In this document: piece after piece, positions 59,924 to 63,248 of the stretch
Layout: each line of letters starts with the position of its first letter
How positions within the stretch are numbered: position 1 is the first letter of the stretch
From: an uncultured delta proteobacterium
GTDB lineage: Bacteria; Desulfobacterota; Binatia; Binatales; Binataceae
Assembly: GCA_963842085.1 (NCBI GenBank)
Contig: CAWJET010000001.1
Span: forward strand, 3,180,342-3,244,341
Direction of reading: 5' to 3'
DNA: 64,000 nt
Position numbers and translations under genes: made by a program
The notes under the pieces: model-generated
The model's input: the letters and a program-made list of their open reading frames with translations, nothing else
Databases searched by the model: none
Told to the model about the DNA's origin: nothing

Positions 59924-60658
59924 ATGGCACGACTTGATTCCGACGGTGGATTCATCAAACGGCTGGAAGAAATCGTCGGCGAGTTTCCGAGCAGAGCGGC
60001 CTTGGCCAAAAAGGCCGATCTGCCGCCAAGTTCGTTGCAGAGCTATATTGAAGGCGCCGTTCCGACCCGGCCGGCGCTCGTGGCATTGGCGAGAGCCGCC
60101 GAAGTCTCTCTCGAATGGCTCGCCGACAATCGCGGCTACAAGAAGCCTCATCCGCCGGTGCCAGATGGCTACGCCGAGATCCCCGTCTACGACGTTCGTA
60201 AATCGGGCGGTTACGTTTATCCGCTGGTGATGGAAGAGATCGCGTCCTGGATCTACTTGAAGCTGGACTTGTTCAAGTACCCGCGAATGCAACCGGCCAA
60301 ATTATTTGTGGTTGAAGCGCTTGGGTCGCGGGCGCCAGAAATCGCGGATGGAGATTTGTTGGTGGTCGATTCGTCTTGGCGCACGAGATTCGTCGATACA
60401 AGCACAACTATACCGCCGGGTAATTACCTGGTTTCGCGGCAGGCGAGATTGTCAATTCGTCAGGCGACAGGCGTTCACGATGATGTTGTCGAGTTCCTCA
60501 TGCCCGATGCCCCAGGTCGAAAGGAAGCTTTCCGCCTCGGCGAGGACGGGTTTGTTGTTCACGGCAGGATAATCTGGTACGGGCGGGCGCTGCCAACTGC
60601 TGGTACCGTCAAACCCGACGACGCGTTTCGCATCACGAACAGGAGAAAAACCCGTTGA
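59924..60658 (+). CDS. Phage CI-like repressor (HTH + S24-like domain)
   Basis: N-terminal HTH (ALAKKADLPPSSLQSY...VSLEWL); IPVYDV; PEIADGDLLVVD; VHGRIIW. Confidence 0.8.
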   Translation: MARLDSDGGFIKRLEEIVGEFPSRAALAKKADLPPSSLQSYIEGAVPTRPALVALARAAEVSLEWLADNRGYKKPHPPVPDGYAEIPVYDVRKSGGYVYPLVMEEIASWIYLKLDLFKYPRMQPAKLFVVEALGSRAPEIADGDLLVVDSSWRTRFVDTSTTIPPGNYLVSRQARLSIRQATGVHDDVVEFLMPDAPGRKEAFRLGEDGFVVHGRIIWYGRALPTAGTVKPDDAFRITNRRKTR

Positions 60659-60786
60659 CCGAATTTCTCTGCGGTGCCTGGATTTAGGGACCCTGATGGG
60701 ATGGACCGCTCCCTGCTGGATAACGGCCTCAGTGGGCCAAGGTGGTACGCTCGACCACCAACAATCGAAGTGGGGAGGGTCCGAAA

Positions 60787-61827
60787 ATGCAGGTTACTAT
60801 TGTTGGAATCGATTTGGCAAAGAACGTGTTTTGTCTTCATGGCTGCGACACGAACGGGAAGCCGGTGTTGCGCAAGCAACTCGCGCGGCGGCAGCTGCTG
60901 AGCTTCGTCGCCATTCTGCCGCGGTGCCTGGTTGCGATGGAGGCATGTGCGAGCGCGCACTACTGGGCGCGCGAGATTGAGAAGCTCGGTCACCAGGTGC
61001 GGCTCATCAGTCCCAGGTTCGTAAAGCCTTACGTCAAAGCCAACAAGAACGACGCCAGCGACGCCGAGGCGATCTGCGAGGCGGCGGGCCGGCCGACGAT
61101 GCGCTTCGTCGCGGTCAAGAGTACCGCGCAGCAGGAGGTGCAGGCGGTCCATCGGGTGCGCCAACAGCTGGTGAAAACCCGAACTGCCCTGGTCAACCAG
61201 GCGCGCGGACTGCTGGAATTCGGCATCGTGGTCGCGCAGGGAGTTGGGCGCCTGCGCCGCGCCCTACCGACGATCCTCGAGGATCGGGAAAACGGACTCA
61301 GCGGAGTGATGCGCGAGCTGCTCGGAGAGATCGGCGAACGTCTGAGCTTCATCGATGATCGCCTGCACAAGTATGACCTGACCATCCAGCGGCTCTTCCG
61401 CCAGGATGAACGCTGCCAGCGAGTGGCCGCAGTTGAAGGCGTGGGTCCGCTGGTCGCCACTGCCCTGGTCGCTGCGGTGGGCAACGCCACCGACTTCAGA
61501 AGCGGGCGCGAACTGGCGGCCTATCTCGGACTGGTTCCGCGCCATCGCGCCAGCGGTGGGCGCACGGTGCTGCTCGGGATCAGCAAGCGTGGCGATCGTT
61601 ACCTGCGCACGCTGCTGATTCACGGTGCGCGCTCGGCCCTGCTCCGGATCGAGCGGCAACGCAGTGCGCGCGCCATCTGGGCCGCGCGGCTCAAGCTTCG
61701 CCGTGGATCTAATGTGGCGGCGGTTGCGTTGGCGAACAAGAATGCGCGAGTGCTGTGGGCGCTGCTCAACCGACACCAGAGCTATCAACCAGCGCCGTTT
61801 CCCGCCCGCGTCCCCCAAAGTGGTTGA
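60787..61827 (+). CDS. IS110 DEDD recombinase/transposase
   Basis: GIDLAK, AMEAC, KNDASDAEAI, GVGP, AYLGLVP..ASGG, ISKRGDRYLR. Confidence 0.95.
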   Translation: MQVTIVGIDLAKNVFCLHGCDTNGKPVLRKQLARRQLLSFVAILPRCLVAMEACASAHYWAREIEKLGHQVRLISPRFVKPYVKANKNDASDAEAICEAAGRPTMRFVAVKSTAQQEVQAVHRVRQQLVKTRTALVNQARGLLEFGIVVAQGVGRLRRALPTILEDRENGLSGVMRELLGEIGERLSFIDDRLHKYDLTIQRLFRQDERCQRVAAVEGVGPLVATALVAAVGNATDFRSGRELAAYLGLVPRHRASGGRTVLLGISKRGDRYLRTLLIHGARSALLRIERQRSARAIWAARLKLRRGSNVAAVALANKNARVLWALLNRHQSYQPAPFPARVPQSG

Positions 61828-61859
61828 GGGAACGGCGGGCGGAAAATGGCTTTACCAGC

Positions 61860-62075
61860 CCTGAGATTGCGCAGGCTGTAGCGGAGAGCATGATGGCGAA
61901 CCGGTCGGAACCGGCACCTTCTCGAACCTGGCCACACACAAGGCCTTCGAGGCCGTGAACCTGATCAGGCGAAGGTGCGCGAACTTCCATCTGGGCCCGG
62001 GGCACAAAATGACGCCCCACTCAACGAGGCCGAATATATGACTGCAACCGGATCATCGCTCATCAAACTCCACAA
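61860..62075 (+). ncRNA. Putative seek/bridge RNA of the IS1111 element (ends approximate)
   Basis: GCCACACACA (61931-61940) is the reverse complement of the right flank; ATATATGA (62034-62041) equals the predicted circle junction; several hairpins. Confidence 0.75.
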
Positions 62076-62105
62076 ACAGTCTTGCGCCCGGGAGCGGTCC
62101 ATATA

Positions 62106-62156
62106 TGTGTGTGGCGAATTACTGATTTCCCCAGAATCAGCAATTCGCCACACACA
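62106..62156. repeat. Palindromic REP-like element, copy 2 (IS1111 target)
   Basis: TGTGTGTGGCGAATT-A-CTGATT-TCCCCAG-AATCAG-C-AATTCGCCACACACA; 22-bp stem with one mismatch. Confidence 0.88.
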
Positions 62157-62234
62157 GGCTGACCTTCGTCTGGCTACATGTCTAACCCGGTGCCGCTGGT
62201 TTCTGAGGGGGATGCTTAGGCGTTCTCCGTGACG

Positions 62235-63248
62235 TCACTCCGAGCCACGGCCTCTTTTGCGTGTGCGGCTGTTACGGCGGGTTCGTGTCGTGACGTTTTG
62301 CGTCAGCCGAACTTTGTGGGGTTGCCCTCCAAGCTGCCAGTCCGGCTTTACGTTGTTCACGGCGTTCTCCGTCTTGATGGCCTCGATCAAGACGAACAAG
62401 GCCTGAGGGTGCACGGCATCCGCGCGATAGATCATTCCCTCGGCGGTCGGGACTGGAAAACCCTTTAGAGGGATGGTCACCAGAGTGCCGCTTTCCAGTT
62501 CCTGCCGGACCACGCAGCGCGGAAGAATCGTCAGGAACTCGCCTTCGCAGAGCACTGCCTTGAGAAAACTCATGGACCCGGAGGTGATCATCGGCTTTGG
62601 TGGCTCTGCACCGGCGGTGCGAAACGCGTATTCGAACCACTCGACGACCTGCTGCGGGCGGTTCGGCACTATCCAGCGCTGCTTTGCTATGAGCGGTAGA
62701 GATTTCCGTCTCTCCGCCAGGATTGGATGATCTGGGCGACACACCACCGCAAACTCTCCCGCTACGAGTTCCTCGTGCACGAGCTCCTCCGCCCGATGCA
62801 TCATAGGGAAGCCGCTCGCAACGGCATCCAGTACGCCTTCTCGGACCAGCGCCGTCAGGCCTTCGTAGGTTCCATCGACGATGTCGAACGACAGCCCCGG
62901 CGTGGTCGCGAGTAGTTGCGCGATCACCCGCGGCAGGAACGAGATCGAAAAGTTCGCCACGCCGAGCCGCAGATGACCGACGTGCCCGGCCTTCACGGCT
63001 TGGATCTCAGCGACTGCCCGTTCGCCCTTATTGAGCAGCAGCCGCGCGTGGCGCAGCAGGATCTCTCCGTAGATCGTGGGTGCCACGCCGCGCGGCCCGC
63101 GCGTGAACAATTGCACGCCCAGATCATCCTCGAGATGGTGGATGCTCTTCGTCAGTGCCGGCTGCGAGAGGTGGATGTGATCGGCAGCGCGCCGCACGTT
63201 GCCGTGCTCCACCACTGCCATGAATTGCCGAAGCTGTCGCATGTCCAT
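62235..63248 (-). CDS. LysR family regulator
   Basis: MDMRQLRQF..V...G....AA..H.SQPALTKSI..LE..LG..LF.R. Confidence 0.95.
   Translation of the reverse strand: MDMRQLRQFMAVVEHGNVRRAADHIHLSQPALTKSIHHLEDDLGVQLFTRGPRGVAPTIYGEILLRHARLLLNKGERAVAEIQAVKAGHVGHLRLGVANFSISFLPRVIAQLLATTPGLSFDIVDGTYEGLTALVREGVLDAVASGFPMMHRAEELVHEELVAGEFAVVCRPDHPILAERRKSLPLIAKQRWIVPNRPQQVVEWFEYAFRTAGAEPPKPMITSGSMSFLKAVLCEGEFLTILPRCVVRQELESGTLVTIPLKGFPVPTAEGMIYRADAVHPQALFVLIEAIKTENAVNNVKPDWQLGGQPHKVRLTQNVTTRTRRNSRTRKRGRGSE

Follow-up and report, generated by a model that had tools for sequence, protein, structure and literature searches.

The window analysed here is a 64,000-nt stretch of the genome of an uncultured member of the Binataceae (contig CAWJET010000001.1; the genome consists of two contigs, 4.93 Mb). 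Near its right-hand end lies an insertion sequence (IS) with a recombinase gene and, downstream of that gene, a non-coding region (NCR) that contains a predicted bridge/seek RNA; the element sits in a palindromic host repeat. A first-pass annotation, made from the letters alone, had described an RNA-guided IS1111-type element whose guides can be read against the repeat. We consider it highly probable that this is an IS1111-group element with a DEDD recombinase and a downstream bridge/seek RNA whose guides spell its host-repeat target. The element and its target comprise the following features.

60694–62105, plus strand: IS1111-group insertion sequence, 1412 bp, with the 2-bp TG core counted once, at the left
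60694–60695, plus strand: core dinucleotide TG at the left junction; the right-junction TG is at 62106–62107
60701–60713, plus strand: left subterminal inverted repeat ATGGACCGCTCCC, 13 nt, 100% complementary to 62090–62102, with a 7-nt extension TGATGGG before it
60787–61827, plus strand: transposase/recombinase gene, 346 amino acids (aa), with D9, E52, D89, D92 and G248-L-x-P251-x4-S256-G257
61891–62052, plus strand: conserved core of the bridge/seek RNA (covariance model R1, 154.8 bits)
62090–62102, plus strand: right subterminal inverted repeat GGGAGCGGTCCAT (repeat finder), with a 3-nt extension ATA after it
62106–62156, no strand: target palindrome resembling a repetitive extragenic palindrome (REP), with arms 62106–62127 and 62135–62156
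62147–62158, minus strand: second, unoccupied target CCTGTGTGTGGC at the other tip of the same palindrome (C1:3242488, minus strand)

The element and its target

The recombinase gene starts at an ATG (60787) preceded by a good ribosome-binding site. Its product matches PF01548 (DEDD_Tnp_IS110, E 8.9e-17) and PF02371 (E 4.7e-22), scores 342.6 bits against a cut-off of 140 with the NCBIfam model NF033542 ("IS110 family RNA-guided transposase"), and, towards its C terminus, distantly resembles the IS621 transposase structure 8wt6 (E 3e-4). D9, D89, D92, G248, P251 and G257 are invariant in a 12-sequence alignment in which position 256 is S or T, and E52 is present in the window copy. We take D9, E52, D89 and D92 to be the catalytic residues from their spacing and by analogy with IS621, not from a structure. 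Published descriptions of the IS1111 group write its motif as GL-P----S(t)G (PMC11187229) and give a transposase size of 330–350 aa (PMC11187229, PMC11208160), which the 346-aa window protein fits; the same sources describe a short left end and a long downstream NCR as the group's layout. Here the non-coding lengths are 93 nt 5′ of the gene and 278 nt 3′ of it, and the subterminal inverted repeats, set back 7 nt from the left end and 3 nt from the right, are within the IS1111-group range (7–17 bp). Because both Pfam domains, the NF033542 match, the 13-bp subterminal inverted repeats and the short left and long right ends occur together, we assign the window element to the IS1111 group of the IS110 family, in agreement with the first-pass annotation; all defining features of the group that can be read from sequence are present. 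The short left end also holds two hairpin-like palindromes kept in relatives (60726–60741, GGCCTCAGTGGGCC, and 60743–60761, GGTGGTACGCTCGACCACC), which may be a structure of the 5′ untranslated region or protein-binding sites.

Eight matches to the element were found in the genome, three of them full length (100%, 97% and 88% identity) and none identical to another. In an alignment of ends, similarity among the full-length copies begins with TGATGGG and ends with ...CCATATA, and the flanks diverge beyond: the left flanks are unrelated apart from a final CC, and the right flanks are the same palindrome in all. TG stands at both junctions in 3/3 of these copies and in L009, a copy in another Binataceae metagenome-assembled genome (MAG). 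The boundary of the IS is ambiguous by this 2-bp TG, the only sequence common to both junctions, and there is no long target duplication. All three copies have full open reading frames (ORFs; 346, 346 and 348 aa). The third (L003, G000 C2:1664632–1666049, 88% identical; ORF L003:1594–2640, 348 aa) has Ala in place of Glu52, the presumed E of DEDD, and may depend on other copies in trans. The same genome carries a second IS1111-type element (L004/L093, C1:1494334–1495657, minus strand), with the guide GGGGTGCA and the target TTTTGGCC/TG/CACCCC, where slashes mark the junctions, and three decayed remnants (L005/L091, C1:2581109–2581626; L094, C1:1580475–1580631; L095, C2:1291507–1291628) that retain part of the RNA and the right end, with no intact transposase gene upstream.

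The target palindrome has 22-nt arms (95% complementary) and a 7-nt loop, 51 bp in total (repeat finder). The IS had first been placed beside it; the palindrome is where it was described, but it continues into CC at 60692–60693 and GG at 62157–62158, to roughly 55 bp, so the IS sits 2 bp inside the repeat. All of the genome's own copies (3/3) lie at CC/TG/TGTGTGGC, as the earlier proposal of a host-repeat target with a constant flank had anticipated, and L009 and L010 adjoin the same palindrome. The palindrome loop is inverted in copy L002, and either repeat tip is therefore usable, as expected for a near-symmetric target. The rebuilt empty site that had been predicted, CCTGTGTGTGGC, is real: base composition predicts 1.1 occurrences in the genome and eight are present, all unoccupied, one of them at the opposite tip of the palindrome that holds the IS in the window. 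The empty sites have the sequence CC-TG-TGTGTGGC. The sequence TGTGTGTGGC is present 24 times on both strands (3 guides within IS copies, 3 occupied sites and 18 others), and 13 complete palindromes, three occupied, were counted by eye; a loose regular-expression census gave 68 matches, mostly unrelated. The target is CC/TG/TGTGTGGC, the tip of a palindromic host repeat between convergent genes, and it is entered in one orientation.

The convergent neighbours of the IS and palindrome are a 244-aa ORF (59924–60658, plus strand) and a 337-aa ORF (62235–63248, minus strand). In soil run X4 the summed contig depth was 2135 over the palindrome (window 62086–62146) and about 100 over the IS, so in that metagenome the repeat greatly outnumbers the IS; 24 contigs of the run diverge directly left of 62106. 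The genome has a single Y1_Tnp match (PF01797, 33.1 bits; G000 C1:1118947–1119174) in a 149-aa frame that could be a REP-associated or IS200-type transposase. An Rfam miRNA model hit on the palindrome was discarded as a chance match (E 0.41, 22.5 bits against a gathering score of 114).

Target guides in the downstream RNA

The NCR spells both sides of this target. The 5′ guide GCCACACACA is 100% complementary over 10 nt to 62106–62115 (repeat finder), exactly as first read, and the 3′ guide, in DNA letters GTGAACCTG, agrees at 7/9 positions with GGGACCCTG at 60687–60695; the two matches overlap on TG. The segments of the RNA and its target-side stems are as follows.

61892–61896, plus strand: 5′ strand of helix 1, GAUGG, the same as the top strand of the IS left end; its partner is CCAUC at 61987–61991
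61914–61921, plus strand: 5′ strand of the stem closing the target loop, GCACCUUC; its partner is GAAGGUGC at 61971–61978
61931–61940, plus strand: 5′ target guide GCCACACACA, pairing with the top strand of core and right target (TG plus TGTGTGGC)
61942–61954, plus strand: distal hairpin GGCC-UUCGA-GGCC, which parts the two target guides; helix 6, 78% paired, compensatory change in 3/4 pairs
61955–61963, plus strand: 3′ target guide GUGAACCUG, in the same sense as left target and core, pairing with the bottom strand
61987–61991, plus strand: CCAUC, complementary to left-end GATGG (60695–60699); 3′ strand of helix 1 (RNAalifold)
61994–62031, plus strand: donor-side stem-loop, with outer GGCC 61994–61997 / GGCC 62028–62031 and inner GGGG 61999–62002 / CCCC 62015–62018
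62034–62041, plus strand: 3′ donor guide AUAUAUGA, equal to right end ATATA, core TG and the first left-end base past the core

Under uniform base frequencies, our own arithmetic gives about 3e-4 chance occurrences of a 10-nt perfect match in the 278-nt NCR and about 4e-3 of the donor 8-mer. Taken by themselves, the CCATC 5-mer (about 0.3 expected) and the 7/9 match (about 0.4) lack significance, and these two segments gain weight only because of their position and their covariation in relatives.

Relatives were collected in a scan of one genome per species (89 found, 80 loci kept), the closest being in Candidatus Binataceae and "delta proteobacterium" MAGs; their 3′ NCRs align well. The segment at the 5′ guide position and the right flank of the element read as follows in relatives with other targets.

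L011 group: guide-position segment TGGGTCA; right flank TGACCCA
L032: guide-position segment CGTGACCA; right flank TGGTCACG
L020: guide-position segment CAGCAGCCA; right flank TGGCTGCTG
L019: guide-position segment GAACTCTCA; right flank TGAGAGTTC
L004 (the second IS of the same genome): guide-position segment GGGGTGCA; right flank TGCACCCC

The score for the 5′ guide was the length of the longest uninterrupted complementarity between the 5′ loop strand and right-flank positions 1–14. Its mean is 7.5 nt for cognate pairs, which reach at least 7 nt in 12/14 elements with different targets, whereas non-cognate pairs average 3.05 nt and do so in 2/182. For the 3′ loop strand against left flank and core, the cognate mean is 4.9 nt (at least 6 nt in 6/13) and the non-cognate mean 3.08 nt (at least 6 nt in 2/156), a covariation weaker than that of the 5′ guide but clear in the aligned relatives. 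Left out of these counts were loci with the same target as a listed element (L002, L003, L009, L010, L012, L013, L015, L018) or with a missing or decayed right end (L005, L040, L067); the 5′ test also left out L017, whose right target is that of L016, and the 3′ test L019 and L038, for which no left end was found. The guide–target covariation among homologs that the first-pass annotation had called for is thus present, and the assignment of the target guide is supported by natural reprogramming, in which the same position of the predicted RNA carries matching sequence for other flanks. The left guide it had named also covaries in relatives, although the match is weak in the window copy; in the flank of copy L002, GAACCTG matches it exactly. 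A further segment, AACCUG (61925–61930), was considered as an additional guide and rejected, since its conservation does not depend on the target and marks it as structural. The right flank of L020 was considered as a tRNA 3′ end and dropped, as ARAGORN found no tRNA in L020.

In L016, L017 and L018 a CG core would be expected from each of the four guide segments, yet TG stands at both junctions, and the 3′ target guide disagrees with the left flank; the flanks of L016 and L017 are common except for the 8 nt adjoining the left end.

The fold was derived by comparison. The covariance model, built from 20 sequences with a structure written by hand from the alignment and RNAalifold, gave 72 matches over 88 loci, seven of them in the window's genome. 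In alignment A5, which was fitted to the model and therefore leans towards the structure, 89.0% of cells are in standard pairs against 71.9% in shuffles (0/500 shuffles reach the observed value), and 29/33 pairs have changes on both sides; when partners were slid by 1–3 columns as a control, pairing fell to 33–50%. Helix 1 is 96.9% paired with compensatory change in 4/5 pairs, helices 3 and 4 are 91–95% paired (8/8 pairs compensatory), and helices 7 and 8 of the donor-side stem-loop 93% (7/8). Of the two stems that close the target loop, 61914–61921 / 61971–61978 covaries strongly and the inner one, CCUG (61927–61930) with CAGG (61966–61969), is weaker; helix 5 is the weaker helix here (67.5% paired). 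When the target-loop segment was folded alone, the closing stem and distal hairpin could be read in 17/20 sequences, with the window's own sequence among the three lacking them. In the comparative model the two target guides lie on opposite sides of one internal loop, between covarying stems and capped by the GGCC hairpin, which was part of the original description. That description had asked whether four matches lie in two internal loops; the two target guides do share one, but CCATC is in a helix and no helix closing the donor loop was found.

Several results weigh against this picture of the RNA. L025 and L080 (2/14) have only a 4-nt exact 5′ guide match, which in L025 is part of a 7/8 match plus one G–T wobble. 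The 7/9 match of the window's left flank to the 3′ guide has only 4 contiguous nt (CCTG), and the left flanks of L016 and L017 fail to match the 3′ guide (2–3 nt). When the whole NCR is folded as a single sequence, the minimum-free-energy structure does not stand out (z = −1.85; 9/200 shuffles as stable) and is without the family architecture, the GGCC of the guide pairing with that of the hairpin; this fold was set aside for the comparative structure. An Rfam search returned no matching family.

One DNA contig from run X1 joins 61909 to 62027 and skips 117 nt, including the whole target-binding loop; it was not relied on, as only 20 nt lie on its shorter side and it may come from another organism.

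The mechanism that we propose on this basis begins with the DEDD recombinase encoded at 60787–61827 and the structured bridge/seek RNA downstream (core 61891–62052). The 5′ guide GCCACACACA would pair with the top strand of core TG and right target TGTGTGGC, and the 3′ guide, (GU)GAACCUG, with the bottom strand of left target and core. Strand exchange would take place at TG, where both guide matches overlap. The second part of the RNA matches the joined IS ends, AUAUAUGA matching right end and core and CCAUC being complementary to the left end. The guides together would direct insertion in one orientation at CC/TG/TGTGTGGC.

Donor side and activity

The segment at 62034–62041, in DNA letters ATATATGA, had been matched to the predicted circle junction, and relatives bear this out: in each of the distinct relative rows compared, the donor guide changes together with the extension of the right end and the core.

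Donor guide ATACATG: right end ACA-TG after ...CCAT
Donor guide ATGTACG: right end GTA-CG after ...CCAT
Donor guide ATCTATG: right end CTA-TG after ...CCAT
Donor guide ATACGTT: right end ACG-TT after ...CCAT
Donor guide ATATATA: right end ATA-TA after ...CCAT
Donor guide ATATAAG: right end ATA-AG after ...CCAT

In the comparative model ATATATGA is single-stranded and follows a covarying stem on its 3′ side. RNAalifold and inspection revealed no conserved helix that would close the loop beyond AUAUAUGA, and a candidate closing helix of GCGCGA (61979–61984) with TTGCGC (62082–62087) was dropped, as RNAalifold did not predict it and L020, by eye, cannot form it. This lack fits a published account of many IS1111 orthologues, in which a multi-loop is predicted to hold the bases that bind the donor (PMC11208160). 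The TG core proposed at the outset fits the CA, UG and UG ends of the three guides and the TG at the junctions of 3/3 copies.

Junction dinucleotides are often one transition apart in ten relatives (L021, L022, L023, L026, L029, L030, L035, L036, L048 and L052), the left and right pairs listed being CA and CG, TA and TG, TG and CG, and TA and TT; the donor guide always matches the right-junction version. Such differences could stem from a mismatched donor and target core or from tolerance of G–T wobble.

The match of CCATC to the left end was also noted from the start and is present, but the segment is not in a loop: the consensus structure places it in a covarying helix with upstream GAUGG, so that it is not freely available, which counts against its use as an open guide. 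The helix nevertheless changes with the DNA end. L038 and L039 combine the left end TGATGA with the helix UGAUGA/UCAUCA, L031 has TAATGA with UAAUGA/UCAUUA, and L061, L063 and L070 have ..AAGG with ..AAGG/CCUU.., so that the inner four pairs follow the left end in at least two to three independent lineages (ATGG to ATGA, ATGG to AAGG, and the second-base G to A of L031). In L021 and L022, CCAUU is Watson–Crick complementary to left-end AATGG and only wobbles with GAUGG in the RNA. We conclude from these aligned sequences that the inner part of helix 1 mirrors the left terminus. The two outer pairs do not follow the first two bases of the left end (L036 and the CAATGG, TAATGG and TTATGG groups).

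Whether this mirroring serves recognition is a matter of weighing. CCATC may be the 3′ strand of a structural helix only, its left-end match incidental and no donor guide at all, a possibility to which we give some credence, short of an even chance. The high pairing and compensatory changes of helix 1 are what a purely structural role predicts, as are a 5-mer match easily reached by chance, the helix of L036, which has become UCGUGG/CCAUGA while the left end is still TGATGG, and the unchanged UGAUGG/CCAUCA beside CAATGG or TAATGG left ends in the L035/L026/L030 group, L052, L029 and L023; the inner four pairs of L038, L039, L031, L061, L063 and L070, and the Watson–Crick fit of L021 and L022 to the DNA rather than to the RNA, speak for a link with the left end. 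The more specific proposal, that the bridge RNA of this IS1111 clade recognises the left end through the helix (UGAUGG / CCAUCN) rather than through an open loop, we regard as rather unlikely. Were it true, either the helix would open and swap strands with the DNA end, or its upstream strand would be an anti-guide gating donor binding; this would be a mode of donor recognition unlike the internal loop of IS621, and it could explain a long seekRNA where a short one suffices in overexpression assays.

Joining of the ends would also assemble a promoter, whose letters, as noted in the first pass, are present across the predicted junction.

62082–62087, plus strand: TTGCGC, candidate −35 of the predicted circle-junction promoter; its −10, TA/TGAT, arises only when the ends are joined

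The predicted promoter has a 16-nt spacer between TTGCGC and TA/TGAT, hexamers that match consensus in 3/6 and 5/6 positions, and a −35 TTG kept in about 15/20 aligned relatives; no sigma-70-like promoter was found in the integrated element (0 found). By analogy with the family, the element would excise to a circle, in which this junction promoter would drive the recombinase and the RNA, and an RNA–protein complex would form and be active at present. Public soil and peat metagenomes contain the stretch, and no circle junction was seen in contigs aligned from public metagenomes and metatranscriptomes. Two peat metatranscriptome runs, both from one study, yielded contigs over 61730–62053 (one 324-nt contig with 5 differences) and 61911–62107, a weak hint of transcription; stretches with no such cover are uninformative.

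Some points tell against an active element: the junction −35 agrees with consensus in only half its positions; contigs from RNA libraries cannot show ends, strand or binding, and DNA is possible in such libraries; RNA, circles and transposition of the window element are carried over from the family; and recent movement is not evident, because no two of the copies (100%, 97% and 88%) are identical. The phrase "apparently intact" of the first-pass annotation holds for the ORF, presumed catalytic residues, ends and guides as read from the sequence, and activity is a prediction.

An IS1111-type element correctly read but immobile, whose guide–target match records a past insertion, is a rival account; we think it possible, though the less probable course. 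Copies that differ by 3% and 12%, the alanine of L003 at the catalytic E52 position, the three decayed relatives in the genome (L005/L091, L094, L095) and the 8 perfect targets still unoccupied would suit a fossil. A fossil does not readily explain why the window copy has kept a full ORF with D9/E52/D89/D92 and the S256-G257 motif, perfect 13-nt subterminal inverted repeats and a perfect 10-nt guide, why RNA-library contigs cover the NCR of this element or close relatives, or why a 97% protein copy stands at the same repeat in another Binataceae MAG (L009). There is next to no chance that the GCCACACACA segment is a captured host-repeat fragment in the NCR instead of a guide: its sequence recurs exactly in the palindrome's right arm (62147–62156), but it is 10 nt only, the adjoining letters of the repeat (GAATT...) do not occur in the NCR, and relatives with non-repeat targets carry complements of their own flanks there (TGGGTCA, CGTGACCA, CAGCAGCCA, GGGGTGCA and others).

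Comparison with known systems

The window RNA agrees with published descriptions of IS1111 seekRNAs both in guide order, with the top-strand match placed 5′ of the bottom-strand one, and in the overlap of these matches where the element inserts (PMC11187229). ISPa11, an IS1111-group element of Pseudomonas aeruginosa, likewise enters a REP palindrome at a fixed position and has its top-strand match 5′ of the bottom-strand match (PMC11187229; PMC13604230), and its DEDD transposase is described as co-purifying with RNA that maps to the 3′ NCR (PMC11187229). It differs in host lineage, repeat and guide sequences, and the likeness is one of description.

ISEc11, of the same group, has the same architecture, and a circle-junction promoter is reportedly described for it in the Pjunc paper, which PMC13626964 cites. 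A published account describes an 82-nt ISEc11 seekRNA with only target matches as sufficient for movement, and ISEc11 versus ISXne4 as a case of natural reprogramming (PMC11187229). The window's family offers a longer reprogramming series, in which a single RNA family serves 14 distinct targets, and donor-end matches covary here, whereas the role of the long part of the seekRNA is called unresolved in that account (PMC11187229).

The IS110-group element IS621 resembles the window element in its RNA-guided DEDD recombinase, in two guides that read both strands around a 2-bp core, in a REP target and in distant protein similarity (8wt6, E 3e-4). IS621, however, encodes its RNA 5′ of the gene, within the left end, and has the guides in the opposite order; its donor loop is a simple internal loop, whereas one donor-matching segment of the window element is a helix strand. 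ISPpu9 and ISPpu10 of Pseudomonas putida are IS110-family elements in REP or stem-loop targets; the target stem-loop reportedly adds specificity for ISPpu10, and for ISPpu9 a downstream small RNA is reported not to be needed for transposition and no junction promoter to form.

IS1111-type systems are less well characterised than IS621, and an element from a poorly studied soil and peat lineage has now been parsed, with ends, core, target and all guide segments placed. One RNA scaffold with at least 14 targets, several cores and several end extensions is usable to derive IS1111 guide rules, and the left-end-mirroring helix and the junction dinucleotides one transition apart raise testable questions on donor recognition. 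What is new beyond annotation is this large natural reprogramming series and the helix, which may already be in published figures or supplements. As the guide layout is that of published seekRNAs, and REP and stem-loop targets are already well known from ISPa11, IS621, ISPpu9 and ISPpu10, the window element is a further example of the known IS1111 type, and the known picture of the family is unchanged.

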